From positions 4,167,840 to 4,231,839 of the forward strand of contig CBDCVN010000013.1 in assembly GCA_965223045.1 (NCBI GenBank): a stretch of 64,000 nucleotides of DNA. Direction: 5' to 3'. The DNA comes from Trueperaceae bacterium. Its GTDB lineage: Bacteria > Deinococcota > Deinococci > Deinococcales > Trueperaceae. The notes below the pieces were generated by a model. That model saw only the letters and a program-made list of their open reading frames with translations, ran no database searches and had not been told where the DNA came from. Positions 4,725 to 48,716 of this stretch are shown here, in pieces. A program made the translations under genes and the position numbers. Each line of letters starts with the position of its first letter. Positions within the stretch are counted from its first letter, which is position 1.

Positions 4725-4980
4725 GGGCGTGTGGACACCTAGAGTGTGAAATCGAAAACGCTACTCTTAAATACCTTGGATAATCCTGATGCTGACGCAT
4801 AAGCTCCTCTGCAATCTGGTAAAGATTATGTGGTTAACAACTAAAGCTTCTCGCAAATATAGGCTATCCTGCAATTTTTTTTGGAATTCACATTTTCTAA
4901 CAAATAGCTGTCCTGAGACTGGCTAGTTTGGTTTTGATATCCAATGCGTGCAATTTCTGATTTGTCATATCCACATGCCC
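4725..4980 (+). mobile_element. 256-bp MITE, copy A
   Basis: Terminal inverted repeats GGGCGTGTGGACA / TATCCACATGCCC flanked by TA (within CTAG). Near-identical copies at 27127, 34428, 36509 and 48717. Confidence 0.85.
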
Positions 4981-19850: not shown

Positions 19851-21376
19851 ATAGACTAAAGGTAAAGGTTGTCTTATCTACTCAAAATATTGTTATCAAA
19901 AGGTTGTGCTTTATCTTGCTCACAACCTTTTTGTTTGCCACGGCTCAAAATTTACATGAGATTACCACAAAATTTGAGCTTGATAATGGCCTAAGGGTTA
20001 TCATGGTTAAGCAAGGCTTTGCTCCGGTGATTAGCTTTAACTTAATGTTTGATGTGGGTGGCATGGATGAGCCTGAAGGTTTAGGTGGTTTAGCTCATAT
20101 GGTTGAGCATATGGCTTTTCAAGGCACCCAGACTATAGGTAGCAATGACTTAGAGGCTGAACTTGCAGCCCTTAGAGAAGTTGAACTCTTTACAGCTATG
20201 CTAGCACAAACTGAAAAGAGTGGTGCTAGCAATGAAGAAGTTAAAGAACTTAGGGAAAGACTGATGCAAAGTCGTGAGTATGCTAAGGATTTGGGTTCTC
20301 CCAACGATTTTTCTACACTTTTTGATAGTAATGGGGCAGTAGACCTAAATGCCTTTACAGGGTATGACTACACTTCTTATGTGGTTTCTTTACCTGCTAA
20401 TCGACTAGAGCTTTATGCACGGGTTTATGCTGATGTTTTGCTCGAGCCAATCTTTCGCAACTTTTATGAAGAACGTGATGTGGTACGCGAGGAGCGACGT
20501 CAAAGTGATGAAGATGATCCTTGGGGCTTTTTGTCTGAAAGGTTTTTAGCAACTGCTTTTGAAGTTCATCCTTATGGTAGGCCACTTATTGGTTCTCCTG
20601 AAGAGATTAAAAATTATCGTAGCACTGAAGCAGAAGCCTTTTTTAAACTTTACTATCATCCTAACCGTGCTGTTTTAGTACTAGTTGGTGATGTTGAGCC
20701 TAATAGTGATATTGAAATAATAAAACGCTATTTTGGATTGATTCCTCGTGGCCCAGAAATCCGTGCTAAAATTCCAAAGGAGCCTGAACAGTTAGAAGAG
20801 CGGCGCATAACAGTTAATTACGATGCCAAGCCACAAATGGTAATAGGTTTTCACAAGCCTACTTACCCAGTCAGAGATGATGCTGTATTGGATGTTATAG
20901 ATGCCCTGCTAACTTATGGACGTACTTCTAGGTTGTACAAACGTCTTATTACTGAAGAGCAATTAGCCTTAGAGGTAGGGTCAACTGAGGTTTTTCCAGC
21001 CTTGCGTGATCCTAATCTGTTTATAATATATGCTACTCCACGTTCCCCAAACACAAATGAGGCTTTAGAAGCTGTTATTTATGAGGAATTAGAGAAATTA
21101 AAAGGGGAATTTGTAACTGAGAAGGAGCTTCATAAAGTAAAAAACCAAGTTAGGGCTGACTTTATATATAATTTGAGCTCGAGCGATGATCTTGCTTCTC
21201 AAATAGCTTTTTCCGAACTTTTCTTAGATGGTTGGGAAACTATTATAAATTACAATGCTGTTATTGAAGAAATAACAGCTGAAGAGATTATGACTATTGC
21301 AAATAATTATTTTGTAGCAGAAAATCGTACTGTAGGATATTTATTGCCTGTAGAAGAAATTGAGGAAACTCAATAA
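19847..21376 (+). CDS. M16 family zinc peptidase, tandem paralogue
   Basis: Same HMVEHMAF motif. Roughly three quarters identical to the upstream gene by eye. 4-nt ATGA overlap with it. Confidence 0.9.
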   Translation: MNRLKVKVVLSTQNIVIKRLCFILLTTFLFATAQNLHEITTKFELDNGLRVIMVKQGFAPVISFNLMFDVGGMDEPEGLGGLAHMVEHMAFQGTQTIGSNDLEAELAALREVELFTAMLAQTEKSGASNEEVKELRERLMQSREYAKDLGSPNDFSTLFDSNGAVDLNAFTGYDYTSYVVSLPANRLELYARVYADVLLEPIFRNFYEERDVVREERRQSDEDDPWGFLSERFLATAFEVHPYGRPLIGSPEEIKNYRSTEAEAFFKLYYHPNRAVLVLVGDVEPNSDIEIIKRYFGLIPRGPEIRAKIPKEPEQLEERRITVNYDAKPQMVIGFHKPTYPVRDDAVLDVIDALLTYGRTSRLYKRLITEEQLALEVGSTEVFPALRDPNLFIIYATPRSPNTNEALEAVIYEELEKLKGEFVTEKELHKVKNQVRADFIYNLSSSDDLASQIAFSELFLDGWETIINYNAVIEEITAEEIMTIANNYFVAENRTVGYLLPVEEIEETQ

Positions 21377-32274: not shown

Positions 32275-32444
32275 GGTGTGTAGAATATCGAAAGTCGGTG
32301 TGTGAAATATCGAAGATTGGTGTGTAGAATATCGAAAGTCGGTGTGTGAAATATCGAAGATTGGTGTGTAGAATATCGAAAGCACTTGCATTGGTGTGTG
32401 AAATATCGATAGTGAGGTGTATGGTGTGTGAAATATCGAAAGTA
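32275..32444 (+). repeat. Seven 22-bp iterons (oriV)
   Basis: GGTGTGT(A/G)(G/A)AATATCGAA(A/G)... units start at 32275, 32297, 32319, 32341, 32363, 32393 and 32423. Two alternating subtypes give a 44-bp periodicity. Confidence 0.85.
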
Positions 32445-33485
32445 GACCGTTCCCCTCTCCTGCCAGAACGTCATCCACAACAGGATTTATTTATCTGCGA
32501 TATTTTCGATGCCGTTCCCAAGGGGGACATAGCATCTATGGAACATCCTGTTTTTAGCCTCTCCACGAAGCCAGATGTAAGGCCTCGTCGTTATGAGAGA
32601 AATGGAAAAGTGCTTGAAATTACTCCTTCTGTAAAAGGTCTTGCAACAGTTTATGACCGTGATGTTTTGATATATTGCATTTCTCAGGTTATTGCTGCTT
32701 TGAATGAAGGAAGGAGTGTAGCAAAAACCTTGCGCTTTAAGGCTCATGATTTGTTGATCTCTACAAATAGGCAAACTAATGGGCAAGCATACGAGGCTTT
32801 AAAAGCTGCTTTTGAACGCTTACGTGGGACAACCATTTCAACAAATATCATGACAGGTGGTACGGAACAACTGGATGTATTTGGCCTGATAGATCGAGCG
32901 AAGATCATACGAAAAACCCGTGATGGACGGATGCTAGATGTAGAAATTACTCTTTCGGATTGGGTGTTTAATGCAATTCGCTCTAATGAAGTACTGGCGT
33001 TGAATAAGCGTTACTTTCAACTTCGGAAGCCGTTAGAACGTCGCTTGTATGAATTAGCACGGAAGCATTGCGGACGCCAAAGGGAATGGCGAATTAGCTT
33101 AGAAACCTTGCAAGAGAAAACGGGCTCAAGCTCAACACCAAAAGAATTCAAGCGGCTGATTAATAAAATTATCAAGGATGACTCGCAATACAATCACATG
33201 CCTGATTACTTCGTTAGTCTTGAAAGCGAAATTGTAATTTTTAAACCCAAGCCTGAGTTTTCAGAGGCGTATCGTGGTGTGAAAAAGGGGGAATCGAGTT
33301 ATGGGTTTTTGAAGTCCGAGACATACGAGAAAGCAAAAGAGTATGCACCAAGTTGGGATATTTATTTTCTTGAACAGGAATGGCGAGAATGGATGGTTGA
33401 GCCTCCTCAATATCCAGATGCTGCTTTCCTTGGTTTTTGTCGTAAGTACTATGAGAGGCATGGGAAGGCAAAGGGAAGTATTTAG
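32421..33485 (+). CDS. repA: Plasmid replication initiator protein RepA (Replication initiator protein A family)
   Basis: HPQQDLFICDIFDAVPKGDIASMEHPVFSLS motif. The start is uncertain: the ORF is open from 32346, but those codons are iteron sequence, so ATG 32421 is used here. Confidence 0.75.
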   Translation: MVCEISKVDRSPLLPERHPQQDLFICDIFDAVPKGDIASMEHPVFSLSTKPDVRPRRYERNGKVLEITPSVKGLATVYDRDVLIYCISQVIAALNEGRSVAKTLRFKAHDLLISTNRQTNGQAYEALKAAFERLRGTTISTNIMTGGTEQLDVFGLIDRAKIIRKTRDGRMLDVEITLSDWVFNAIRSNEVLALNKRYFQLRKPLERRLYELARKHCGRQREWRISLETLQEKTGSSSTPKEFKRLINKIIKDDSQYNHMPDYFVSLESEIVIFKPKPEFSEAYRGVKKGESSYGFLKSETYEKAKEYAPSWDIYFLEQEWREWMVEPPQYPDAAFLGFCRKYYERHGKAKGSI

Positions 33486-35976: not shown

Positions 35977-36002
35977 AAAGGGGTGACAAGACACCCCTTT
36001 TT
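35977..36002. terminator. Bidirectional rho-independent terminator downstream of vapC
   Basis: Stem AAAGGGGTG / CACCCCTTT with a 6-nt loop, flanked by an A-run and a T-run. Confidence 0.6.
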
Positions 36003-36402
36003 AGATTTCCCAATCTGTGAGGGAAAGTTCGGTTATGCGGTTAAGGTGTTTAACATTGTGCGTTACAAGCGTTGCGTCGTTTGCTTTGGCGATTGCCCCT
36101 GTGAGAAGGTCAGCATCTTCTATTAATGTGCCCCTCTGGCGTAAGTCCTGATAGATGCTGATAGCCTCATCTAGAGCGAGTGTATCAAGGTCTAAGAGTC
36201 CATATTTTTGAACTAAGGTATCAAATGCTGTTAGCTTCCGTTTAAATCTAGGTAAAGCCAGCCCTCTTTTGATTTCGTAATAACAGATAGCGTTTAGGAC
36301 AATTTCGTGACCATCGTTTGAAGCGCCACGGAGGTTTGCAAGTGCCGTTTGGTTCCCGCTAAGTAATTTGCTGACGAAGTTAGTGTCGAGGGTATAAAGC
36401 AT
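36001..36402 (-). CDS. vapC: PIN-domain toxin VapC
   Basis: MLYTLDTNFVS (first acidic residue), then later conserved acidic positions. 133 aa. Confidence 0.85.
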   Translation of the reverse strand: MLYTLDTNFVSKLLSGNQTALANLRGASNDGHEIVLNAICYYEIKRGLALPRFKRKLTAFDTLVQKYGLLDLDTLALDEAISIYQDLRQRGTLIEDADLLTGAIAKANDATLVTHNVKHLNRITELSLTDWEI

Positions 36403-37006: not shown

Positions 37007-37342
37007 CTACTCGTCCTTATCTAGGTTCGTGAAGTCGCCAATTCCTCCGATTAGCACAGGGGAACGATCAGGAAACTCGGCCATGATTTTAAGGTCACCT
37101 CCCATTGCTTGTACATAGTTTCTTAGGGTTGAGAGTAGCATGTCAGATCGTTTTTCAAGCCTAGAAATACTGCTTTGAGGCATGTTTAATTCCTGTGCAA
37201 TGCGTTCCTGCGTAAGTGATTGTGCCTTACGTAAATCCTGTAAAGTTAAGTATTCATCCAGAAGCTCTTGGCCGCGTTTTTCAACATACTCACGGCGCTC
37301 TTTCGGAAGTTCATCCATTATACTTTCTAAAGACCTACCCAT
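37007..37342 (-). CDS. XRE-family HTH antitoxin (HigA-like)
   Basis: HTH segment LTQERIAQELNMPQSSISRLEKR. Overlaps the upstream toxin gene by 8 nt. Confidence 0.8.
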   Translation of the reverse strand: MGRSLESIMDELPKERREYVEKRGQELLDEYLTLQDLRKAQSLTQERIAQELNMPQSSISRLEKRSDMLLSTLRNYVQAMGGDLKIMAEFPDRSPVLIGGIGDFTNLDKDE

Positions 37343-37703
37343 TTTTTGTCTCCTCTAAGTCCGTTAAGTGCATATCGAAACGCTCATCCGCTTTTCTAAT
37401 GAGTTTCTTGTAGAATTTCTTCTGACTCGTTCCTGACTTGTCGCCAGCAAAAAGCAGAATTGCTTTTCTTGCTGGGTCAAACGCAAAGGCTACACGCCAC
37501 ACTCCATTGTCTGCATCAAATCGCAGCTCTTTCATGTTGGCATGCTTGGAACCGTTTAATGTGTCTGCGTTTGGCCTTCCAAGCATCGGGCCGAGTGCTT
37601 TTAGTGGTATAAGAGAAGCCAATAGCTCATCCTGTACTACCTCGGAGAGATTCTGAAACTCTGTCTCGAATTCGCTAAAGAACTCCACTTTCCACTGACT
37701 CAT
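37335..37703 (-). CDS. RelE/ParE-superfamily toxin (HigB/Gp49-like)
   Basis: Toxin-first order with an HTH antitoxin. Segment KELRFDADNGVWRVAFAFDPARKAILLFAGDK is typical of Gp49-like toxins. Confidence 0.75.
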   Translation of the reverse strand: MSQWKVEFFSEFETEFQNLSEVVQDELLASLIPLKALGPMLGRPNADTLNGSKHANMKELRFDADNGVWRVAFAFDPARKAILLFAGDKSGTSQKKFYKKLIRKADERFDMHLTDLEETKNG

Positions 37704-37949: not shown

Positions 37950-37988
37950 TTCTATTCACTGACAAATAGGATTCCCCCTGATTTCAGC
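37950..37988 (+). repeat. 39-bp direct repeat, copy 2
   Basis: TTCTATTCACTGACAAATAGGATTCCCCCTGATTTCAGC. Directly abuts a 28-codon HTH gene fragment (QDQEVAELLGVSHNTVWRMVKQGIKAVS, minus strand, about 37853-37940). Confidence 0.7.
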
Positions 37989-38108
37989 ATTAGGGAGTTG
38001 CTCTAGCACTGAATTTCAGGGGAGGGTAGGGGTATGTCGTTTAGAGTTAACCCTTGTTGTCATTTAATAGGGTTGCCTTCTGACATCTGCCTTCCTATCC
38101 TACCTGTC

Positions 38109-38687
38109 ATGGGGATTGGTGTTTACATTCGGGTATCGTCTCATAGCCAGAAATCAGATAGCCAGAGGGTTGAAATTGAGCAGTGGCTTACAGCTCACGG
38201 TCATGATCTGGATAGTGTGCAATGGTTTGAGGATAAGGAAACAGGTGCACATCTGAACCGCTCAGGGTTTAATGCCCTTTGTGAAGCTATTTTTGAGGGA
38301 ACCGTTAAAACGGTAGTGGTCTGGAAACTTGACAGGATAGCCCGTTCCATGCGTGAGGGTATAGATATCTTGACAAAATGGTGTGAAATCGGTGTCCGTG
38401 TCGTTTCCGTTACCCAGCAAATTGATCTCTCGGGCACAGTCGGGCATTTGGTGGCAGGGGTGTTGTTTGCTGTTGCACAGATAGAATTGGAGCACACCAA
38501 AGAGAGGCAAGCTGCGGGGATTGCTCTTGCGAAGGAAAGGGGAGTCTATAAGGGAAGGAAAAAGGGAAGCACCAAGGCGAAGCCCAAGCGAGCAAGAGAA
38601 TTGAAAGTGCAGGGGTTAAAAGCTCCTGAAATAGCGACTGTGCTGGGAGTCAATGAAAGAACCGTGTTCCGCTATCTGAAAGGGTAG
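38109..38687 (+). CDS. Small serine recombinase (resolvase/invertase family)
   Basis: GVYIRVSSHSQ catalytic-serine motif, VVWKLDRIARS, C-terminal HTH. Start placed at internal ATG 38109. Confidence 0.85.
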   Translation: MGIGVYIRVSSHSQKSDSQRVEIEQWLTAHGHDLDSVQWFEDKETGAHLNRSGFNALCEAIFEGTVKTVVVWKLDRIARSMREGIDILTKWCEIGVRVVSVTQQIDLSGTVGHLVAGVLFAVAQIELEHTKERQAAGIALAKERGVYKGRKKGSTKAKPKRARELKVQGLKAPEIATVLGVNERTVFRYLKG

Positions 38688-38705
38688 GGAAGGTTTTCCT
38701 TGCAA

Positions 38706-38725
38706 ATATGGTAGATTCACCATAT
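38706..38725. promoter_or_regulatory. Operator-like palindrome upstream of the second higBA-type pair
   Basis: ATATGGT-AGATTC-ACCATAT, 34 nt upstream of the toxin start. Confidence 0.35.
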
Positions 38726-38758
38726 TATAGAGGTAGGGTAAAACGGTAGTATGGTCTT

Positions 38759-39133
38759 ATGGTGAATGAAAAACTGGTGATATGGATGGGAACGTCCAAA
38801 AAAGACCTGAAAGCAATGCCTGATGATGTGCAGGATGCCATAGGTTTTGTACTGGACAGAGTGCAAAAGGAGAAGCCACATCCCAAGATCAAACCGCTCT
38901 CAGGGAAAGACCTTGGGGGTGTTTATGAGATTCGCAGCGATCATGACACTGACACTTACCGAGCGGTGTATGTAATTAATTTGGGAGGCAGAGTATTTAT
39001 GCTTCATGTCTTTAAGAAGAAATCGAAAAAGGGAATAGAAACCCCTAAGCCTGACATGAACGTAATCAAAACAAGGCTGAAACAGGCCAAGGAATTAGCG
39101 AAGGAGTTGGATGATGAGCAAAACAAACATTGA
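38759..39133 (+). CDS. RelE/ParE-superfamily toxin (phage-related HigB-like)
   Basis: GVYEIRSDHDTDTYRAVYVINLGGRVFMLHVFKKKSKKG pattern. Followed by an overlapping HTH antitoxin gene. Confidence 0.75.
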   Translation: MVNEKLVIWMGTSKKDLKAMPDDVQDAIGFVLDRVQKEKPHPKIKPLSGKDLGGVYEIRSDHDTDTYRAVYVINLGGRVFMLHVFKKKSKKGIETPKPDMNVIKTRLKQAKELAKELDDEQNKH

Positions 39134-39476
39134 TTACGAGGTGGGAAGTGGGAACGTATTTGCTGATTTAGACTTACCTAATCCAGAAGAGCGCTTACTT
39201 AAAGCACGCCTCGCTGGCATGATTTATGATGTGATAGAAGAGCGAAGCTGGACACAAAAGCATACGGCTTCCATTTTGAACATCACACAACCAGATGTGT
39301 CAAAAATAGTGAATGGCATCCTGAAAGACTTTTCAGTAGAGCGTTTAATTAATTTTCTGGCGAAGCTAAATCAGCGCATTACCATCACCGTGCAGGATGA
39401 AATGCACGATCTGCCTCCAAGGGAAGTAGTTATTGCTGCTCAGATGCAAGAAACGGGGAGCCGTACAAGTCTCTAG
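39111..39476 (+). CDS. XRE-family HTH antitoxin (HigA-like)
   Basis: HTH segment WTQKHTASILNITQPDVSKIVNG. 23-nt overlap with the toxin gene. Confidence 0.75.
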   Translation: MMSKTNIDYEVGSGNVFADLDLPNPEERLLKARLAGMIYDVIEERSWTQKHTASILNITQPDVSKIVNGILKDFSVERLINFLAKLNQRITITVQDEMHDLPPREVVIAAQMQETGSRTSL

Positions 39477-39485
39477 GTCATGACT

Positions 39486-39520
39486 TCCCAACTTTTCTCT
39501 AATTCAAGGCATTAATTGGG
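39486..39520. repeat. Cassette-boundary palindromic repeat R1 (degenerate)
   Basis: TCCCAACTTTT ... AATTGGG with a longer loop. Confidence 0.4.
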
Positions 39521-39606
39521 CAAGTGGTTCTTGCACTTTTTCTGAAAGAAGTCCAAAACCGCCTTCTATTCCTTACTGGAAGCCAAAGTAAGACAAGCGA
39601 AGTTTG

Positions 39607-39631
39607 TCCAACTTTTAGAAAATAGTTGGGA
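39607..39631. repeat. Cassette-boundary palindromic repeat R2
   Basis: TCCAACTTTTAGAAAATAGTTGGGA. Confidence 0.65.
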
Positions 39632-39652
39632 TTGGGGGGTGGGTAGTTTTCT

Positions 39653-40228
39653 TTAAATTGCTTCCTTGTAGGCCCTGTTTATCTCTGCCATTTGCTCTGC
39701 ACTGCCTCCGTTATCGGGGTGAGCCAACTTTGCTAGACGGCGGTAGGATCGCTTGATTTTGTCTTTTGAGGCGTTTGGAGGTACTGATAGTATTTCGTGC
39801 CAAGATCGCTTAGTATCGGGTGCTGGGAGTGCCTGAAACCCTCTGAATGCTGCTTGCACTGTGTCGTCCCCACCCCAACGATTAATACCCCGTAGTGCAT
39901 TAATGGTTTTGCCGATAGCGTGGAGATTGTCTGCCACATCAATCCATTTGTCACAGGTGAAACACGTGTCCTGCCCGTTGTATTTAAAGTAAACTGCTAT
40001 GCCTGTATCATCGGGTTTTTTGTGATTGGCGTAGGGTAGCCCGTCCCTGCGTAATGGAATGTTGCTGGAGATAATGACATCCTTGCCACCTAGCAAACGT
40101 ACCTCATCCAATAACTGAGTCCTTGCCCATGTAAAACTCGTGTCAAAGCGGCTTTTTTGTGGATATTTGGTTCGAGGTTTATTGCTAGGCCAGTAAAGTG
40201 GGTAGGCTTCAATAGCATCCATTTTCAC
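39653..40228 (-). CDS. J-domain protein with an unassigned N-terminal domain
   Basis: C-terminal J domain WHEILSVPPNASKDKIKRSYRRLAKLAHPDNGGS with the HPD motif. Confidence 0.75.
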   Translation of the reverse strand: MKMDAIEAYPLYWPSNKPRTKYPQKSRFDTSFTWARTQLLDEVRLLGGKDVIISSNIPLRRDGLPYANHKKPDDTGIAVYFKYNGQDTCFTCDKWIDVADNLHAIGKTINALRGINRWGGDDTVQAAFRGFQALPAPDTKRSWHEILSVPPNASKDKIKRSYRRLAKLAHPDNGGSAEQMAEINRAYKEAI

Positions 40229-40311
40229 CCTCTCGTTTTAAGTGTTGTGATTTGCTTTTTAGATAGTGGAAAAGCAGCGAAAAACAAGGGTAAGAGTGGG
40301 TTTTGCATTAC

Positions 40312-40339
40312 ATCCCAACTTTTATAGAATAGTTGGGAT
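40312..40339. repeat. Cassette-boundary palindromic repeat R3
   Basis: ATCCCAACTTTTATAGAATAGTTGGGAT, with 9-bp arms. Confidence 0.7.
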
Positions 40340-40380
40340 AAAAAAGCAGGCTGTCCCGATGGGTAGAACAGCCCGTTTGC

Positions 40381-40710
40381 TCAGCCAGATGCAGCCCTCT
40401 CTTCCATTTGGCCTGCTATGCGTTCGCAGGCATACCAAACTAACAGGTTTTTTAGGCCTCCATCACTGAAAGCCATATCTATGCGTTTGAAGGTAGCGAT
40501 GAGTGCTATGGGGGTTTTATACCCCATAGCCCCCACGTCCTCGTTCAACATTTCCCAGATGTCTTCTTGGTACTGGTTGTAAAGCTTCACACAGTCATTG
40601 GTATAGGTTATGTGAGGCCAGCCAGCATCTGCACCATGCTGGTCAATATCTGAGGCCTCCTCGCTCAAATTTTCTTGGAACCACTCCTTGAAATTTTCGG
40701 GATTTTCCAT
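40381..40710 (-). CDS. Hypothetical acidic protein (109 aa)
   Basis: ORF with coding-like composition, no recognised motif. Confidence 0.45.
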   Translation of the reverse strand: MENPENFKEWFQENLSEEASDIDQHGADAGWPHITYTNDCVKLYNQYQEDIWEMLNEDVGAMGYKTPIALIATFKRIDMAFSDGGLKNLLVWYACERIAGQMEERAASG

Positions 40711-40931
40711 AATCCCTCGATCCTGAGTTTTACAGGATTATGCACGATAGGAAATCCCATCTCAGACATTGCAGAACGCAACGTTTGAATTCCCCTGCGT
40801 GCATGTCAAACTCGTCAGGGAGTGTAGTGAGACTTGTGGCTTCTGTTAAGGCCTAACGGGAGGGTAGTTAAAAAAATCCGCCAAATTTCTTTGCTGGAGA
40901 TATAATCCTTTGATATTGTTTCACATCAGGG

Positions 40932-41073
40932 ATGATCACCATGCGAATGCACTGGACGGATATTGAACTTGAAGAGCATTGGTCGCTAACGGACGCTGAA
41001 CAGCAAGCACTTTTGCTTGGCAAGACACAGGGGCAGAGATTAGCCATTGCGGCACTGCTAAAGTTTCACCAGA
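40932..41073 (+). pseudogene. N-terminal (DUF4158-like) fragment of a second Tn3-family transposase, cut by the inner transposon
   Basis: WTDIELEEHWSLTDAEQQALLLGKTQGQRLAIAALLKFHQ resembles Tn3-family TnpA N-termini. The reading frame then runs into the inner IR. Confidence 0.5.
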
Positions 41074-41180
41074 TTGGGTTCGTCCCAACAAAGGTACGTG
41101 AAGTCCCACAGGAATACCCCCCATTGATTTGATGTGATTGCGTTTTCGGCTTTTTTCGTCCTCCTGAATTAGTTCCTTTT

Positions 41181-44100
41181 TCATGCGGCTACTTTCAGGG
41201 GAAGAATTCCGATAGAATCTTTGAGTTTTTCGTCAGAGAAATCGTACTCGCCAAGCATATTCACATGTGCCCATGACATGGGCGAGTGTGCTGTGATTAT
41301 GCGGTGTAAATTTTCTTTGGTTTCGACGTCTGTCGCTTTTTCGATCTGGCGAGTGAGATAGAGGTAATTCCAGCAGATGATGCTGTTTTTGATGAGTCGA
41401 TTGCAGGCTTCAGCAATTTCCTGTTCCTCTTTTTCAGTCTGTGTAAATTCGCGGGGGTTTCCGACGGCGACGGCACGGGTGAATTTATTAGCTAACTCGA
41501 CTTTGTTGAGTTGTTTCTCAATGGCTTGCCGTAATTCCACATCGTCTATATAGCGAAGTATAAACAGTGACTTGATGATCTGCCCAAAGGCTTTGAGCGT
41601 CTGATACAGTGCATGCTGGCGAGAATAGGAATTAAGCCGCCGAAAAATATCCGAAGCGGTGTTTTCCTTGAGTTTGATGGTAGCAACTAAACGCAGTAGA
41701 TCATCCCAGTTTTCGTGGATCAGCGTGTCATTGACGTAATTGGCAGGGATGATCTTCCATCCCTCGCGGTTACTTCGCTTATGACCGTGAAACAGATAGA
41801 GCCTTTGCTTGCCAATCCCTTTGATACGTGGGGCAAAAGAAAATCCCAACAGGTGGATAAGGCCAAACACCGCCTCAGTATAGCCGTGTGTGTCGGTGGA
41901 ATGGATATCACTTTTGATGACATCATTGTGCATGAGACCGTCGATAACATAGGCGCTTTCACGGTCAGCGGCGCTGATCATCAGCGAATGCCACAGAAAA
42001 TGCCGTTCATCGGCGAAGGTGTAGGCGCTGACACCTTGTCCTTGCCCGAAATACTTGAATGACCGACTGGCATGCAGGGAGTCGCCACGCACCTCGAATT
42101 TCTGTCCGTCGCTAGCGGTATGAAGTGTATCCTTCTCCCGGCGATAGAGATTGGGAAGATCCATTTTATCCATGGCTTTGAGCACCGTATCATGGGCAGT
42201 ACGGATATTGTCGAGCGAGAAACGCCAGTTGACGGTGTGTTCCAGCTCACTTTCGGTAACACGCGAAGAAATTCGCGCCATTTTTCGTACACCAATGCCA
42301 CAACCCAGTCCCATGATCCCAGCCAGTAATGCGGGATGTGATGTGGATGGTCGGATATGGGTCTGTCGCCAATGTTCGAAAGCATCCAGCATGCCGCAGT
42401 GATTGTTGATAGTTTCCAGCACCTGTGCCAACGGCACATCGTGCCGTTCGGGAAACAAGGCTCCAAGCGGATCGACATCAAAAGCGTCGAGTGCAGGTGT
42501 AGCGACATGAAAGGTGCTATCAGAGCGGAATTTCAGATGTGGGTTGTTGGTCACACGATCGTTTGTCGTTTGATACTGTGCATAAAGAGCCTCGTCCAAT
42601 TTTGTTAGAATGGGTACGGGAGCGGCAAAACCGTCAAGACCGGCTCGTTCCAGCAAACAGGATTTCTCTCGTTTCCACCTTTCAGGAGCAATCAGATAGG
42701 CATCCATTGGGCGGTATTTATAGGATTGGACAAGGTTCAGATCGCCGGACTTGATTGCACCAGTGACGTGCTGGAACAGGAACACCTTGTAAAGTGAGGG
42801 ACGAAATGTACCATCTTCACGTGTCAATATTTCTCTCTCATCAGCATCAAGGAAATCCATCGGTGCTCGGTCACTAACACCTCCATTGCTGGCCTTGAAA
42901 TGCTCAATAGCTGCAATCAGTGAGGTAGCACGATCATTCGGTTTGAAAGAAAGTGCTCGCAAAATTGGGCGGAGACGATTTTGTAACCGCAGGGAATGTG
43001 CTTCCAGTACGTTATACCAGCTTCCATCTTGCGCCGTATCGTGCAGACTGACTTTCAATCGTTCAAACGCACCAGTTTGACCGCAATTCAGCAATGCTCG
43101 GATCTCTGTGATTTTCTGCGTATCGGACAGGCTATCAGCATCGGTCAGGGTGCGGATTTCCCGAATCAAGCCGAACACTTCAGTGTCGAGTGTCTCAACT
43201 ACGGATGTAATCCTTTCCTGTTGTCCCTTGCGGTTTTCCAGCAATCTTTCCTTGTGTTCACGCGCAGCGGTTGTTTGAAAGGAGGCCATGACATTAAGCC
43301 AAAGATCGACCAGATTATCTTGCATGCGGAAAAATTGATGTGCAACAAAGGCGGTAGCATGGATATAGCGATCGTTATCTTCACGCCGATGTATCTGAAA
43401 CACTTCAGATTTCAGCACACTGCCAGCATAATAGCGGATACCGGCAGTACCAAGATCAAGAACTGACAGAATCTTTTCAAGTTGGCTATACAGCACTGCC
43501 AGTGTCTCGAAATCTGCAATGCTTTCCTTGATCCGTGTCGGTTTTGTCGATTGCGATAGTTTTTTAAGCAACGTCAGACAGTAGCGATTCTGGTCGTCTG
43601 TCGTGCTGAACAGGTCATCCAGCAACCCCCGCGTTTCGTCGGTTAGATGGGTATCCATCAGCGCTACCAGCTCGGATTTTCGGGTATACAGACCCCCGCG
43701 GATTAGTTCGAGTATGACACCTGCTCGTGGAACCTGTACCCGACGCTGCATGAGGAAATCCACGCAGCGGTCAAACATCAGCCGTGGCTTGAGGTGCATG
43801 CGTGCCATGGTAGCAATTTCAATAGACAAGATTTTTTTCGCCGTCTCATTAAAAGGCGCAAAGCCATAGAACTCCAGAATCAGTTGCTGATGACGAGCAC
43901 GCGTCTGCTTGGCATATGCATCTGATGAAAAATCGGAACTTTGTAGCTCCAGAATTCGTGCAACTACTTCTCTATCGCGTTCATGAAAATCCTGTGGCTG
44001 ATAAAACCGCTTGGTTGCTTTGAAATATCCACACATCAGCAAAAATCCAATTTTCCCACTGGGTGTGCGCAGCGTAGCAGCGGTATCCATCAAACCTTTG

Positions 44101-44198
44101 GGTGGACTAAAAGAATGCTTCCGCTCACGATGATTGAACAGGGGCGGCTTGTCGAAAGACTCCTGCTCGTTTGCAGTAAGGATTCGCATTCGGGGCAT
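41181..44198 (-). CDS. tnpA: Tn3-family transposase
   Basis: 1005 aa, with a DUF4158-type N-terminus and a Tn3-type DDE C-terminal region. Confidence 0.95.
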   Translation of the reverse strand: MPRMRILTANEQESFDKPPLFNHRERKHSFSPPKGLMDTAATLRTPSGKIGFLLMCGYFKATKRFYQPQDFHERDREVVARILELQSSDFSSDAYAKQTRARHQQLILEFYGFAPFNETAKKILSIEIATMARMHLKPRLMFDRCVDFLMQRRVQVPRAGVILELIRGGLYTRKSELVALMDTHLTDETRGLLDDLFSTTDDQNRYCLTLLKKLSQSTKPTRIKESIADFETLAVLYSQLEKILSVLDLGTAGIRYYAGSVLKSEVFQIHRREDNDRYIHATAFVAHQFFRMQDNLVDLWLNVMASFQTTAAREHKERLLENRKGQQERITSVVETLDTEVFGLIREIRTLTDADSLSDTQKITEIRALLNCGQTGAFERLKVSLHDTAQDGSWYNVLEAHSLRLQNRLRPILRALSFKPNDRATSLIAAIEHFKASNGGVSDRAPMDFLDADEREILTREDGTFRPSLYKVFLFQHVTGAIKSGDLNLVQSYKYRPMDAYLIAPERWKREKSCLLERAGLDGFAAPVPILTKLDEALYAQYQTTNDRVTNNPHLKFRSDSTFHVATPALDAFDVDPLGALFPERHDVPLAQVLETINNHCGMLDAFEHWRQTHIRPSTSHPALLAGIMGLGCGIGVRKMARISSRVTESELEHTVNWRFSLDNIRTAHDTVLKAMDKMDLPNLYRREKDTLHTASDGQKFEVRGDSLHASRSFKYFGQGQGVSAYTFADERHFLWHSLMISAADRESAYVIDGLMHNDVIKSDIHSTDTHGYTEAVFGLIHLLGFSFAPRIKGIGKQRLYLFHGHKRSNREGWKIIPANYVNDTLIHENWDDLLRLVATIKLKENTASDIFRRLNSYSRQHALYQTLKAFGQIIKSLFILRYIDDVELRQAIEKQLNKVELANKFTRAVAVGNPREFTQTEKEEQEIAEACNRLIKNSIICWNYLYLTRQIEKATDVETKENLHRIITAHSPMSWAHVNMLGEYDFSDEKLKDSIGILPLKVAA

Positions 44199-44329
44199 AT
44201 GAGACCTTGGTTTAGATGGCCGGAACCGTTCCCTTTTGGACAGGTGAAAAACACATGTTCAGAAATTAGCTTGAAAGACTATAGGACATACTTATAATTC
44301 CGTACACCTATTTCTTACAGGAAAACATA

Positions 44330-44905
44330 ATGACCAGAACATTTGCCTATGCTCGTGTCTCAACAATTGAGCAAAACCCCGAAAATCAAATCCGGGAAAT
44401 CGAAACGGCAGGATTTGCCATAGAGCCGCACAGGATCATCACGGAAACCGTTTCCGGGTCGAGGGCCATTACACAACGCAAGGGATTTTCCAGATTGCTC
44501 GACAAGATGGAAAAAGGAGATGTACTGGTTGTTACCAAGCTCGACCGACTGGGACGCGATACTGTCGATGTCAGCATGACTGTGACCAAGCTGGAAAAAA
44601 TGGGAATTCGCGTGCATTGTCTTGCCTTGGGAGGCGTTGATCTAACCAGTTCAGCCGGAAAAATGACGATGAACGTCATCAATGCCGTTGCCCAGTTTGA
44701 GCGTGATCTGCTTATCGAGCGAACACAGGCAGGTCTATCTCGCGCGAAAGCGCAGGGAAAACCTCTTGGGAGACCACCAGTCCTGTCATCCGATCAGCAG
44801 AAAAGGGTGCGTGAAAAAATTGAAAACGGTGAACCCATCTCAGCTATCGCACGCCAGTTCAACACTAGCAGACAAACAATCATGCGAGTCAGAGAGGTCA
44901 CATGA
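44330..44905 (+). CDS. tnpR: Tn3-family resolvase (serine recombinase)
   Basis: FAYARVSTIEQ catalytic motif, VVTKLDRLGR, C-terminal HTH. Divergent from tnpA across a 131-bp putative res region. Confidence 0.95.
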   Translation: MTRTFAYARVSTIEQNPENQIREIETAGFAIEPHRIITETVSGSRAITQRKGFSRLLDKMEKGDVLVVTKLDRLGRDTVDVSMTVTKLEKMGIRVHCLALGGVDLTSSAGKMTMNVINAVAQFERDLLIERTQAGLSRAKAQGKPLGRPPVLSSDQQKRVREKIENGEPISAIARQFNTSRQTIMRVREVT

Positions 44906-45200
44906 ACCTGTGGGACTTTACGTACCTTTGTTGGGAAAAACCCCCTATTGGTTGCTTGCCCCCTTTTTGTTGCAACGGTTTGGTTTGACTTGGAAGGAAA
45001 CAATGGTAGCAATTCTTGCGCTGACCTTAATTTTGGTAGCATCGGCGGGCTTCACACTGGATATTGATGCACTACGCACTAAGGTGTGAAGAAAGGAACC
45101 TGATTCTATAGCGACCTTGGAAGAAATTAAGCGCAGCATGAACTAGCTCCAAAATCCAAAACTGAAAAATCTGGCGGGAAAATGAAGCTACCCTCCCGTT

Positions 45201-45465
45201 AGGCCTTATTGGCAGTACCGAAGGTCATAGCTTTGTGAACGGTCAGAATGATGATCTTGTTGGGGTCGATCCAAAATTAGGGTCTCTTGCTGATAATGGT
45301 GGTCTCACTCAAACCGTCTCCTTGTTAACAGGCAGTCCAGCTATTGACGCCGTACCCATAGCCAAATGCAGGGATTTGGATGGGAATCAAATAGCAACCG
45401 ATCAACGGGGCATTACCAGACCACAGGCTTCTGGTTGTGATATTGGCGCGTATGAGGTGAACTGA
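45201..45465 (+). pseudogene. C-terminal fragment of a choice-of-anchor-Q / beta-helix type secreted protein
   Basis: DPKLGSLADNGGLTQTVSLLTGSPAIDAV...DQRGITRP...GCDIGAYEV tail. The frame opens right next to the outer transposon IR. Confidence 0.55.
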
Positions 45466-45475
45466 GATGAGCTAA

Positions 45476-45501
45476 TCCCAACTTTTAAACAATAGTTGGG
45501 G
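45476..45501. repeat. Cassette-boundary palindromic repeat R4
   Basis: TCCCAACTTTTAAACAATAGTTGGGG. Confidence 0.7.
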
Positions 45502-45510
45502 TAATTTCTC

Positions 45511-45780
45511 TTAGTCAAATAATTCTGAGTGACTGCCTGTACGTACCAACCAGAGTATCTCCTCATCATAACGATAGATCAAAAGCCAGTCAGGGCGTAT
45601 GTGGCACTCTCTGTGGTCTTTCCAGTTTCCTGATAAAAGATGATCGGAATACCTTTCATCTAGGGCATTTCCTGCTTGCAAAATATCGACAACATTTTCC
45701 AATTCATCAATATCCTTTCCCTGCTTCCCTGCCTTCTTCAGGTCCTTCCTGAAGCGAGATGTGGTTTTGACAATGTACAT
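45511..45780 (-). CDS. YafQ/RelE-family toxin
   Basis: FRKDLKKAGKQGKDIDEL...YSDHLLSGNWKDHRECHIRPDWLLIY pattern. Confidence 0.85.
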   Translation of the reverse strand: MYIVKTTSRFRKDLKKAGKQGKDIDELENVVDILQAGNALDERYSDHLLSGNWKDHRECHIRPDWLLIYRYDEEILWLVRTGSHSELFD

Positions 45781-46037
45781 TAAACATCTAGCTCATTGCG
45801 TAGATCAGCAAAGCTACCATAAGTACGAGAATCATCTCCAGACTCTGCTTCTCTCATGGCTTCAAGCGTTTCGGAGTTGGGGATTTTTACCTCGAATGGC
45901 AATCCCTCTTGCAATACTACCTGACGCAAGAACAGATTTATTGCCTGCGCAGGCTTCATGCCTACTTCCTCGAAAATCGCAAACGCAGCTTTTTTTGTTT
46001 CTACATCGAGTCTTAGGTTTGTGGGTTCTGTAGCCAT
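45780..46037 (-). CDS. RelB/DinJ-family antitoxin
   Basis: LRLDVETKKAAFAIFEEVGMKPAQAINLFLRQVV RHH motif. Its stop overlaps the toxin start. The start could be 46049 or 46037. Confidence 0.85.
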   Translation of the reverse strand: MATEPTNLRLDVETKKAAFAIFEEVGMKPAQAINLFLRQVVLQEGLPFEVKIPNSETLEAMREAESGDDSRTYGSFADLRNELDV

Positions 46038-46112
46038 AGCAGTCTCCATAGGTTACAATTGTATATCATTTGTAACCTTCTGGCAAGATGCTTTCTAGGT
46101 GCAGCTTCTACA

Positions 46113-46140
46113 ATCCCAACTTTTAAACAATTGTTAGGGT
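46113..46140. repeat. Cassette-boundary palindromic repeat R5
   Basis: ATCCCAACTTTTAAACAATTGTTAGGGT. The right arm is degenerate. Confidence 0.6.
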
Positions 46141-46239
46141 TAAGGCTTACCTGTAGTTGTTCTCTTGATCTAGATTGCATTGTGATTTTATTCCATAATA
46201 TTATATTGAAGTATTTCAAATGGTTATTAGGAGAATAGC

Positions 46240-46752
46240 GTGGAAAGTTTTATTAGGAAGTTTGTCAGGTTAGGTTTTGTAGGTACAGTTGTTTTTGTTC
46301 TTTCAAGTCCTCTAGCACTAGCTCAAGGAAGGGAAGGAATCTGGGTAACGGGACGTGATGGTTTTGCAGGAGATTCACCTGTGTGGGGTGGAACTGATAA
46401 TCAACAAGATATTTTTGTATGTAGAGCTGAACACAATGGAGAGCTAATCCCTGGTAAATTACATACAAATTACCAGAAGTGCTATGTTGCATATGGTCAC
46501 AAGGAGCATGAATACTCTAGGTATTCTGTTTTACAGCAAGGTGGGTATTGGTGGGAACCATTGACGGGTGCTATACCTAGTAATGCAGTTATCGGTGGCA
46601 GTGATAAGGGAGAACCGCTTTTTATATGTATTAGTATTGTGGATGGTGAGTGGACAACAGGAAAATACCTTGAGTCTCATGATGTGTGTTACTCGCCTTG
46701 GGGTGGAGAGGAACATTCTAATCGCGAATTGTACATCTTAGTCTATCAGTAA
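46240..46752 (+). CDS. Secreted protein with two DM9/DUF3421-like repeats
   Basis: Signal peptide, then two repeats of the pattern W..GG.D....+F+CR......PGK.....C...+G..E (GTG start). Confidence 0.55.
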   Translation: MESFIRKFVRLGFVGTVVFVLSSPLALAQGREGIWVTGRDGFAGDSPVWGGTDNQQDIFVCRAEHNGELIPGKLHTNYQKCYVAYGHKEHEYSRYSVLQQGGYWWEPLTGAIPSNAVIGGSDKGEPLFICISIVDGEWTTGKYLESHDVCYSPWGGEEHSNRELYILVYQ

Positions 46753-46813
46753 GAGGATTTAAGGGGCAATAGTTTGATAAATTATTAATTTGAATGTTTT
46801 TAACAATAGAGTT

Positions 46814-46829
46814 ATCCCAACTTTTATAG
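46814..46829. repeat. Cassette-boundary repeat R6, left arm only, cut by the IS701-family element
   Basis: ATCCCAACTTTTATAG immediately abuts the IS inverted repeat at 46830. Confidence 0.55.
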
Positions 46830-48359
46830 TATTACAGCGCAATGTCATGGAATATAACTCCTAGACAATATAGCAAGAGTACGTTTTCGATGCGAAGCAT
46901 AAGCAGTATAATTTCTGCGCTGATAGTAACGAATTAGATTTAGTGATTGAGCTATTGTCAATCTAGGTAACGGTATTGCTGCCTTGAGCAGCACTCTTGC
47001 CTGTGGCAAAGTTAAAGCTGGAGACTTTTCTCCTAACATTAAACGCATCCTCACCAGAAAATGATGTGCTAGACAAGTTAATAGTATATGGTGATGCCAA
47101 CCTAAGTAGCTTCTAGTTTCGTAGTGATCAAGCCCCAGTTCTTCTTTTGATTCCTCAAACGATGTTTCTATCGGCCATCTCATTCCACTTAGCCACACTA
47201 ATGTTTCTAGGCTGACTTCTTCTGAGTCATTGCACAAATAATAGCTTATCTCTCTTTTCTCATTTAGGTTACGCCGAATTACCAACCACAGTTCCACTGG
47301 CTCTTCTTCTCCCCTTGTTTCCCATATTCGCTCAAAGGCAAATTCACATACTATTGGCCCTTTACTTCCTTCTTTCACTACATGTTTACTCCATTTTTCT
47401 GCTTCTATTTCCTTTGCTAACTCATCTATCCGTATTGATTCAATATTTGCCCTTGCTAGTTTCGGCTTCCTTCCCCTACCTTTATATTCAGGTACCTTGA
47501 CCTCTGGCTTCTCCTTGTATACCTGCGTATCGCAAGATACTGCTGTAAAGTACTTTTTTCCTAATTCAGCTACTCCATCTCTAAACTCGATATTATTTCC
47601 ATACAATGCATCTGCTAGCACATATTCAAAGCTCAAACGCCCTCTCTCTTCTGTCTTTTTTATCATTCCTAACGCTATTTCTGGTTTGGTTCTAAATTCT
47701 AGATCCTTTGGCACTCCACATTCTTCCCTTTTTTGTTCATGCTCTTTATCAAACCATTGTTCTGGTAAGTACAACTGCCCTTCTGTTAAGGTATGTCCTT
47801 TGTTACTGGCATACCCTAGGTATACTCCTACTTGACTGTTCTCCACTTTTCCTACTGATCCACAATATTGCCTTGCTACTCCTACTGAGCTTTTTCCTTG
47901 TTTTACATTCCCTGATTCATCAACTATCAGTACTCCATCATTACCTAAACTTTCTGCAATAAGTTTTTGATGCGTGTCAATCACAGGTTCTAACTGCCAA
48001 GGGCTTTGTCCTACAAAGTTTTGCATGCTACGGACATTCAGTCCTATTGATAGTGCCATTGCTTCTATATTTTTTCGATCAAGGTTGCTTAACAAACCTT
48101 TTAGATAATGTCCTGTCCAGATCAAACTTTCAGGTCGTTTAAATGCTTCTTCAAACTCTGCTACGTATTCTTTGAGTTCTTTTGCTAGCGCTTCTATATC
48201 TGCTTCAACTAAGTTGCATTCTGGAGGACTTAAATTTACGGCCTCTTCTAATATTTCATTGTGTGCTTTATAAATGTTTTTCATAGCCTTAATTTATTAT
48301 TCACACTCGCACTTTTTTCGCACTTCCCCTTACTTAATATGCAACATTGCGCTGTAATA
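46830..48359 (-). mobile_element. IS701-family insertion sequence
   Basis: Perfect 16-bp terminal inverted repeats TATTACAGCGCAATGT (46830-46845) / ACATTGCGCTGTAATA (48344-48359). Confidence 0.8.
46845..48284 (-). CDS. IS701-family transposase (479 aa)
   Basis: N-terminal region ...WTGHYLKGLLSNLDRKNIEAMA...SMQNFVGQSPW and a DDE domain (LIVDESG...LADALYG...FEESKEELGLDHYE). Confidence 0.85.
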   Translation of the reverse strand: MKNIYKAHNEILEEAVNLSPPECNLVEADIEALAKELKEYVAEFEEAFKRPESLIWTGHYLKGLLSNLDRKNIEAMALSIGLNVRSMQNFVGQSPWQLEPVIDTHQKLIAESLGNDGVLIVDESGNVKQGKSSVGVARQYCGSVGKVENSQVGVYLGYASNKGHTLTEGQLYLPEQWFDKEHEQKREECGVPKDLEFRTKPEIALGMIKKTEERGRLSFEYVLADALYGNNIEFRDGVAELGKKYFTAVSCDTQVYKEKPEVKVPEYKGRGRKPKLARANIESIRIDELAKEIEAEKWSKHVVKEGSKGPIVCEFAFERIWETRGEEEPVELWLVIRRNLNEKREISYYLCNDSEEVSLETLVWLSGMRWPIETSFEESKEELGLDHYETRSYLGWHHHILLTCLAHHFLVRMRLMLGEKSPALTLPQARVLLKAAIPLPRLTIAQSLNLIRYYQRRNYTAYASHRKRTLAILSRSYIP

Positions 48360-48716
48360 TTACATACCCCTTATTTTTAACTTCACCTATTAAATCTACA
48401 AACCCTAAAATATCTGTGCTTTGCCTAACTTCCTCAACATAATTATTTGTCTTCAATAATCTGATTATATGTTTCCTGATCAATTAGTATACAAATTCGT
48501 TTACTTTCTCGCTGCTCAAGATCTTGTTTTTCCCTTTGACATTCTCTATTCTTGTGTTGAGGTGTTTCTTGGTCCATATCATGTATAACACCTCATTTTG
48601 CTCCCTTTTTTCAATAGCCACAGAATTAGTTAGAATTTGATCACTACATTTAGATGAAAGCCTTATTAAGGCACTATCAAAACAAGGCTTGTTAGCACTT
48701 GCTATCGGTGATACTA

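Follow-up and report, generated by a model that had tools for sequence, protein, structure and literature searches.

The run of small gene cassettes at 39.4-46.8 kb of the window (by which we mean the whole 64,000-nucleotide stretch of contig CBDCVN010000013.1, from an assembly labelled Trueperaceae bacterium) is punctuated by a short palindrome. In our judgement these palindromes are, with reasonable probability, the core sites of a family of tyrosine recombinases of about 197 aa, bounding exchangeable modules in a manner analogous to the pdif modules of Acinetobacter. The tight form of the palindrome, 27-28 bp long, occurs in four full copies in this interval, each at a gene boundary, and to these can be added one copy cut by an insertion sequence (IS) and one wide-spaced copy, also at gene boundaries. 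An initial annotation of this DNA had placed six copies on cassette boundaries, and all six were located there.

Each site is built of two arms of about 12 bp (AATCCCAACTTT) around a variable central 6 bp, usually TANNNA, a 12-6-12 layout in which the core can be written as AATCCCAACTTT-N6-AAAGTTGGGATT; overall the palindromes measure 24-30 bp and have near-perfect dyad symmetry. The left arm is always CCCAACTTTTA in the window, and the right arm varies more. When the pattern CCCAACTTTTANNNNNWWGTTGGG was scanned with up to three mismatches, the window gave 8 matches against 0.09 expected from shuffles. There are five strong copies in the 64-kb window, all of one polarity and all inside 7.4 kb, and with the Tn3-family insertion and the IS subtracted the six sites span only about 3 kb. 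A three-mismatch match, CCGAACTTTTCTTAGATGGTTGGG, at 21213-21236 inside an open reading frame (ORF, 19847-21376), is probably due to chance.

What is conserved in these palindromes is sequence rather than structure. As single strands they are predicted to fold weakly (-1.9 to -8.1 kcal/mol), and the copy at 46113 has kept the motif and lost the hairpin, without compensatory changes, so that of the earlier proposal that sequence and structure were both conserved, the first part holds and the second does not. Intrinsic terminators were considered and rejected, as no T-run follows the palindromes, the terminator scan calls none of them, they fold weakly, and a real terminator stands beside one copy; the initial annotation had already argued against plain terminators from the missing T-run, and the scan and the folding energies agree with it. 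A search of the palindromes against Rfam gave no match.

An exact-pattern scan of genome and metagenome collections retrieved 48 loci (given L numbers here), six of which come from a single metagenome-assembled genome (MAG), CBDCWW01. One polarity is kept in every multi-site locus (the window, L003, L005, L019, L025 and L050), and certain spacers recur across genomes (TATAGA seven times, TAAACA three times and TACCCA twice). Outside the window's lineage, about 20 of the 43 pattern-retrieved loci have a gene for a small tyrosine recombinase within roughly 50-650 bp of the palindrome. The distance from palindrome to start codon is about 45-190 bp in most loci and about 490 bp in one group of Desulfobacterales (L040, L046 and L014), and in L030 and L043 the palindrome directly abuts a truncated copy of the gene. 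The hosts in which site and recombinase are linked include Desulfobacterales, Desulfobacter, the cyanobacterium Nodosilinea, Marinicaulis, Caulobacterales and Gammaproteobacteria, and the linkage is thus found in Desulfobacterota, Cyanobacteria, and Alpha- and Gammaproteobacteria. In the recombinase of about 197 aa, Pfam finds PF00589 only, that is, a catalytic domain with no recognisable core-binding domain; NCBIfam matches are weak and to Xer-type models, and among solved structures XerA and XerH come closest. In the alignment the residues R-K-H-R-H-Y do not vary, and as far as can be judged from its residues the enzyme looks active. The family is large (over 7000 protein clusters, under no other name than "tyrosine-type recombinase/integrase"), and several copies can be present in single Desulfobacter chromosomes.

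A second retrieval, made by protein and independent of the DNA pattern, drew on 79 viral contigs and annotated plasmids. Here the tight palindrome lies at -159 to -190 from the start codon, and its inner ACTTT-N6-AAAGT is conserved, with outer arms that differ by recombinase subfamily, several being of the xxAACTTT-N6-AAAGTTxx type. The outer arm is CCCAAC in L073 (palindrome at -164), TCTAAC in L062, L064 and L067, TTTAAC in L069, L071 and L074, ATTAAC in L070, L072 and Kovacikia pB, GCTAAC in L089, ACTAAC in Leptolyngbya plasmid2 and Spartinivicinus pC, CGTCGTC in L075-L086 and CGTCATC in Solidesulfovibrio pDCAR5. Such covariation of arm and subfamily, together with a variable 6-bp centre, is what would be expected if the palindrome were the core site of its tyrosine recombinase, accompanied by an operator or accessory site. 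The window sites are of the CCCAAC subtype, the one that stands upstream of recombinase genes in L010, L013, L018, L035, L045, L047, L048, L073 and others. The architecture of recombinase plus site is also present on complete plasmids, namely Kovacikia pB, Solidesulfovibrio pDCAR5, Leptolyngbya plasmid2, Acaryochloris pMB06 and Spartinivicinus pC; on the 9.5-kb pDCAR5 the recombinase gene lies alongside RepB and ParA, and Spartinivicinus pC has another full site at a distance of 3 kb, the pair bracketing the recombinase gene and a chemotaxis-receptor gene. Scanning the viral contigs with the palindrome pattern gave a single match, which looks like chance.

In the recombinase loci the tight site (site I) has a partner, site II, in which the same arms stand about 22 bp apart. 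Site II lies about 120 bp nearer the gene than site I, surrounds promoter-like hexamers, with 10-40 bp between its end and the start codon, and this doublet is common to L010, L035, L047, L048, L027 and L073 and to the plasmid loci L142, L143, L148 and L150. The window has the same arrangement, with 39487-39520 at the canonical distance from 39607-39630 and with the better-conserved arm of site I facing site II, as in most recombinase loci. Thus the copy at 39486, previously described as a degenerate repeat, is not decayed; it is a distinct and conserved variant. Where a recombinase start codon would be expected, the window instead has the stop codon of HigA, 10 nt from site II, and in L050 the recombinase start position next to site II is occupied by the stop codon of YafQ. 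Orphan doublets are likewise found in L050, L005 and L025. Read from the arrangement of its motifs, 39487-39630 is an orphan recombinase control region from which the gene is missing, and the window contains four solitary core sites in addition.

Comparison with relatives shows what happens at these sites. The 33.6-kb contig L050 (also L147; ENA ERZ25072490 ctg190514) is a concatemer, of about 1.7 units, of a plasmid of about 20 kb, its gene order recurring every ~20.0 kb, and carries genes for MobA, Rep_1, RPA, ParA and a resolvase 86% identical to the serine recombinase of the window. The window and L050 have four segments in common, which are the resolvase region, the doublet (39488-39635 against L050 11184-11332, 78% identity, with site II homologous to L050 11184-11220), the TATAGA site with its terminator (40314-40382 against L050 12235-12304, 84% identity) and the YafQ-RelB cassette. 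The interval from the doublet to the TATAGA site is filled by the J-domain cassette in the window and by an unrelated ORF of 206 aa in L050. The unit of site and terminator is 84-85% identical to L050 12235-12304 and L025 1543-1609, and its adjacent gene is a different one in the window, L050 and L025. The YafQ-RelB cassette (45511-46099) is 84% identical to L050 11171-10581 and is inverted and relocated, lying next to the resolvase gene in L050, in the slot held by higBA in the window, and between two TAAACA sites in the window, where its ends are 10-14 nt from the flanking sites.

The MAG CBDCWW01 (L003, L005, L007, L017, L019 and L025, 38-43% G+C) is taken as a relative because its parts show 78-83% nucleotide identity to parts of the window. 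It is labelled "Trueperaceae bacterium", a label that may not fit these loci. The DUF7222 cassette of the window has a counterpart in L025, and the nucleotide homology ends at the edge of the site. Within the MAG, an FG-GAP cassette occurs twice (L003 1375-3576 and L005 7511-4874), and the homology of the two copies runs from the first base of one site to just past the next, with unrelated flanks outside. Compared with the window, the stretch from the resolvase gene to higBA in L003 is also longer by two site-bounded cassettes, TacA-GNAT and FG-GAP. It had been suggested that the repeats mark cassette boundaries, and this is supported; the comparisons among the window, L050, L003 and L005 show gain, loss and relocation of cassettes at the repeats. 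The undescribed cassette-capture or shuffling arrangement that the initial annotation entertained is the best-supported reading.

It could be argued that palindromes and cassette boundaries coincide simply because both are intergenic, and that the palindromes are repetitive extragenic palindrome (REP)-like or regulatory elements such as operators or RNA-stabilising hairpins. We consider this rather unlikely. Most copies do lie 3-160 bp after a stop codon, but the 46113 site is placed between divergent gene starts and promoters and not at a 3' end. In the same way, the nine strict matches in the whole of the related MAG are spread over six contigs, one of them beside a cysteine desulfurase gene, but these copies are few and clustered, as are the strong copies of the window. 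In favour of REP-like elements, L005 has two IS200-type Y1 transposase genes (3827-4315 and 6696-7133), but no Y1 (RAYT) transposase gene flanked by the palindromes was found in the window, and those of L005 are not so flanked; compared with L003, the second of them is a separate insertion of about 650 bp upstream of the FG-GAP cassette, with 237 bp between it and the site. The site II that precedes the recombinase gene does look operator-like, and binding without recombination is conceivable. A regulatory role is harder to reconcile with hairpins that are weak, with sequence kept without compensatory changes, and with homology of paralogous and orthologous segments that starts or stops at the site itself. 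Three other candidates were set aside: end hairpins of IS200/IS605 elements, as the IS200-like genes of L005 are independent insertions; CRISPR repeats, as there is no array structure; and Tn7-like end repeats, which were considered and dropped.

A small serine recombinase of the resolvase/invertase type is encoded at the edge of the array (38109-38687). The initial annotation had suggested it as the dedicated enzyme, and the palindromes would then be hix/gix-like or res site I-like sites through which it shuffles or inverts cassettes. A 26-28-bp dyad that is A/T-rich inside and has a dinucleotide at its centre would suit a serine recombinase, the gene lies at the array edge in L050 as well, paralogues or fragments of it are found near sites in L003, L017 and L025, and relatives differ in the orientation of both the YafQ-RelB cassette and the resolvase gene itself. 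The family is large and highly conserved (2383 homologues at E <= 1e-30), yet none of 15 loci with homologues of 30-78% identity carries the CCCAAC palindrome, and the homologue-bearing contigs L144-L146, from high-G+C organisms, have no palindromic sites. The enzyme also has conserved upstream motifs of its own, TGTC/GACA-N3-TAG, typical of resolvase binding sites and invariant in the alignment of the upstream regions of the window, L050, L003 and L144-L146; this region is a candidate res site of the serine recombinase and does not belong to the palindrome system. Furthermore, the array lies downstream of the serine recombinase gene in the window and upstream of it in L003, and the identical palindrome is tied to the tyrosine recombinase in many lineages without this resolvase nearby. 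The 38109-38687 enzyme is therefore probably not the one that acts on the palindromes, and we regard its involvement as very unlikely. No plasmid matched the resolvase by tblastn at E <= 1e-40.

With the palindromes read as core sites of the small tyrosine recombinases, it can be hypothesized that the native module consists of a tight site I, an interval of about 120 bp, a wide site II enclosing the promoter, and the recombinase gene, carried on plasmids, phage-like contigs and chromosomes. This module would most likely serve multimer resolution or integration of plasmids and phage-plasmids, as Cre/loxP does. On the model of Xer, Cre and similar simple tyrosine recombinases, dimers of the recombinase would bind the two arms, cleave at the spacer edges and exchange strands across the 6-bp spacer. 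Where sites are present on several replicons or circles, recombination between them could fuse the molecules, which would then be re-resolved at other sites, and the outcome would be mosaics in which sites of one polarity stand between the modules. The window may be such a mosaic, held in an integrated plasmid remnant and made of an orphan doublet, four further solitary sites, and the toxin-antitoxin, J-domain, DUF7222 and DM9 cassettes. Any present-day activity in this genome would need a recombinase acting in trans.

Several observations weigh against this interpretation. No tyrosine recombinase was found in the window (a hidden Markov model, HMM, of the catalytic domain gave no match below E = 0.6 among 150 ORFs of at least 70 aa, and tblastn found none), in the six 8-kb loci of MAG CBDCWW01, or anywhere on the ~20-kb plasmid L050/L147 with its homologous array. 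The retrieval pattern came from the window, and the pattern-retrieved loci are therefore not independent for the bases that it specifies, as the protein-retrieved loci are; among the latter, about half of the viral loci have no clear upstream palindrome at the thresholds used. No site is present where the resolvase gene meets the first cassette slot, which implies that other processes also reshaped the region. Neighbouring sites of the window have unlike spacers (TAGAAA, TATAGA and TAAACA), and for most tyrosine recombinases unlike spacers would block simple excision of the intervening cassette. It can be speculated that the recurrent spacer classes, with unlike spacers flanking cassettes, reflect recombination of two molecules at sites with like spacers, and not plain excision. 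Lastly, a literature search by sequence and by concept returned no description of this site or of this recombinase family.

In its logic, the closest known system is that of the pdif modules, short arm-spacer-arm sites of about 28 bp in plasmid accessory regions of Acinetobacter, recombined by XerC/XerD, with which toxin-antitoxin modules on plasmid DNA such as those described here agree (PMC6449649, PMC13141974). As in the window, pdif sites consist of two arms (of about 11 bp) around a 6-bp spacer and delimit separate modules (often of a toxin-antitoxin pair) in which related plasmids differ, and the recombinase is not encoded adjacent to them. The likeness raises the question of whether the palindromes are themselves dif-like sites on which one or more chromosomal Xer recombinases of the host act, in which case the small recombinase family would be irrelevant here. 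The layout and the length of about 28-30 bp match Xer sites, and the ~20-kb plasmid L050 does without a dedicated recombinase, but we find this distinctly unlikely. The conserved XerD arm of dif is TTATGTTAAAT, to which the palindrome bears no evident resemblance, the site sequence being apparently unrelated to dif. Moreover, the exact palindrome and its site II partner form a conserved element upstream of the small recombinase gene, and the apparent enzyme here is a single dedicated recombinase with its own control region and not the host XerC/XerD pair. The sites keep one polarity, whereas pdif sites alternate in orientation, and the hosts are not Acinetobacter (a 39% G+C genome in the case of the window, and elsewhere Cyanobacteria, Desulfobacterota and Proteobacteria).

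Integrons were the comparison made at the outset. Sedentary integrons typically carry toxin-antitoxin cargo and small cassettes that look promoterless, and CCCAAC and GTTGGG resemble the RYYYAAC and GTTRRRY core sites; here too there are arrays of small cassettes, mostly of a single gene or a toxin-antitoxin pair, whose content varies between relatives and each of which is closely followed by a site of uniform polarity. On these grounds the array might be a degenerate integron of the CALIN kind, in which attC sites are clustered without an integrase, but we give this reading almost no credence. Sites of attC measure at least about 57 bp and range as folded single strands to 141 bp, and those described here are 24-30 bp of simple double-stranded, near-perfect palindrome without L'/L'' boxes or extrahelical bases. 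The earlier view that the repeats are too short for attC is thus upheld, and the kinship with integron core sites that it nevertheless allowed is not, since the 12-6-12 layout is a double-stranded tyrosine-recombinase layout and the sites are tied to a different, small recombinase family and not to IntI. Genes in the cassettes point both ways, as had been noted before, there is no attI/Pc platform, and the absence of an integron integrase, first remarked on by eye, extends by HMM and tblastn across the 64-kb window. The CALIN concept itself is described in PMC4889954.

The native module has parallels in Cre/loxP of P1, in XerS/difSL, a recombinase-plus-site module (PMC1914069), and in TnpI/IRS of Tn4430, in each of which the gene of a lone tyrosine recombinase follows a palindromic core site of its own. 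As with those modules, the one described here occurs once per plasmid, next to rep and par genes. In Tn4430, accessory binding motifs likewise lie within about 120 bp upstream of the gene. The differences are that the recombinase here is much smaller (197 aa), that there is a second site with wide-spaced arms enclosing the promoter, and that solitary sites have been multiplied into arrays. In size the family is similar to the tyrosine DNA invertases of the FimB/FimE type, which are about 200 aa long and have no full N-terminal domain, and the L013 protein weakly matches the NCBIfam model "tyrosine-type DNA invertase". Beside the recombinase gene in L013 (1458/1579), L018 (3602/3722) and L006 (7527/7661), two tight sites stand 120-134 bp apart with inverted spacers, and a small FimB/FimE-like invertible segment upstream of the gene is a possibility in these loci. 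The window sites, in contrast, are direct repeats separated by whole genes, and show no sign of an invertible promoter switch.

A broader proposal can be put forth more tentatively, and we hold it to be somewhat less than an even chance: that this is a widespread, undescribed system of module exchange, in which small tyrosine recombinases acting in trans on solitary loxP-like sites of about 30 bp build and reshuffle cassette arrays across phyla, beyond multimer resolution. Exchange might then proceed through site pairs with different spacers, as a natural form of recombinase-mediated cassette exchange. To our knowledge, only integrons and Xer/pdif modules, the latter so far seemingly confined to Acinetobacter, assemble cassettes at short recombination sites, and if the proposal is true it would add a third route to cassette arrays. 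If the palindromes are live, the same strategy would have arisen with a separate and very abundant recombinase family, which has members on plasmids of cultured cyanobacteria. An unannotated recombinase family would gain a defined DNA target and a testable function, the movement of toxin-antitoxin and accessory genes between plasmids and chromosomes in these lineages would be explained, and compact pairs of recombinase and site with naturally diverged specificities would become available, possibly of use as tools.

The array sits in a degraded, IS-riddled, integrated plasmid remnant; its features and those around it are listed in Table 1.

Table 1. Sites, cassettes and neighbouring elements of the array, in window coordinates
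Feature	Position	Strand	Remarks
RPA/RepA replication initiator gene	32346-33485		58-62% identical to (alphaproteobacterial) plasmid RepA genes
Region upstream of serine recombinase gene, candidate res site	37958-38108	+	TGTC/GACA-N3-TAG motifs; 81% identical to L050 9852-10000
Small serine recombinase (resolvase/invertase type) of plasmid backbone	38109-38687	+	PF00239 + HTH
HigB-like (Gp49) and HigA-like (HTH_37) toxin-antitoxin pair	38759-39476	+	Pfam; slot between resolvase gene and site II
Site II (wide-spaced inverted repeat)	39487-39520	-	CCCAAT-N22-GTTGGG on minus strand
Spacer between sites I and II of putative orphan doublet	39521-39605	-	partly matches L025 4027-4098
Tight site I of putative orphan doublet	39606-39632	+	GTCCAACTTTTAGAAAATAGTTGGGAT; spacer TAGAAA; core 39607-39630
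J-domain protein cassette	39653-40228	-	PF00226; bounded by two sites
Tight site	40312-40339	+	ATCCCAACTTTTATAGAATAGTTGGGAT; spacer TATAGA
Intrinsic-terminator-like hairpin of DUF7222 gene	40347-40375	-	terminator scan; separate from palindrome
DUF7222 protein cassette	40381-40710	-	Pfam; 80% amino-acid identity to L025 6413-6736
Nested Tn3-family insertion splitting one cassette	40847-45208	.	outer 42-bp inverted repeats 40847-40888 and 45167-45208
Inner Tn3-family transposon	37-bp inverted repeats 41076-41112 and 44907-44943	.	inside outer element
tnpA of inner Tn3-family transposon	41181-44198	-	1005-aa transposase
tnpR (resolvase) of inner Tn3-family transposon	44330-44905	+	
76-aa ORF fragment of unknown family	45235-45465	+	ends 10 nt before 45475 site
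Tight site	45475-45503	+	ATCCCAACTTTTAAACAATAGTTGGGGT; spacer TAAACA
YafQ toxin and RelB antitoxin cassette	45511-46049	-	Pfam
Tight site	46113-46140	+	ATCCCAACTTTTAAACAATTGTTAGGGT; spacer TAAACA; right arm mutated to GTTAGG
DM9-repeat secreted protein cassette	46240-46752	+	PF11901
IS-truncated site	46814-46829	+	left arm and start of spacer only
IS701-family insertion sequence cutting last site	~46830-48360	-	inverted repeats 46827-46845 and 48344-48362; transposase matches IS701-family genes

By Pfam, the cassette contents proposed earlier were largely confirmed (Gp49/HigB with HTH_37/HigA, a DnaJ-domain protein, DUF7222, YafQ-RelB and DM9), the exception being the 76-aa fragment, which has no Pfam match and for which the label "beta-helix" is unverified. 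The outer Tn3-family element is short and retains only a DUF4158 transposase fragment (40932-41132). A right half-site was looked for beyond the IS701-family element, and none was found there. The genome appears to have a G+C content of 39%, and the window is taken to be chromosomal because the resolvase has a 100%-identical entry on a contig of 5,160,581 bp; when the window was compared with PLSDB by megablast, only a Tn3 transposase matched. Further into the plasmid remnant, 27700-37700 contains at least four transposase genes of the IS4/IS5 type and further toxin-antitoxin pairs, among which a PIN-like ORF at 36001-36402 was assigned by eye and a Gp49 and HTH pair lies at 37007-37703.

Some features of the other loci can be recorded here. 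In many contigs of marine-sediment Desulfobacterales (among L014 and L028-L046), a conserved non-coding element of about 330 nt adjoins the palindrome; some copies are deleted between internal ATAGCGG(G/T)(A/C)C motifs (L011, L036 and L042), and the flank opposite the element varies, being either a recombinase gene or another conserved sequence. In L017, a sequence of about 50 bp with a terminator-like hairpin is present in inverted copies (4730-4800 and 5778-5830) that flank a cassette with an ORF of 237 aa and its palindromic site, downstream of a truncated resolvase gene. Unrelated to the array, positions 8649-11327 of the window encode an 892-aa protein with trypsin-like protease and STAND NTPase (nSTAND1) domains, of a type seen in conflict and defence systems.

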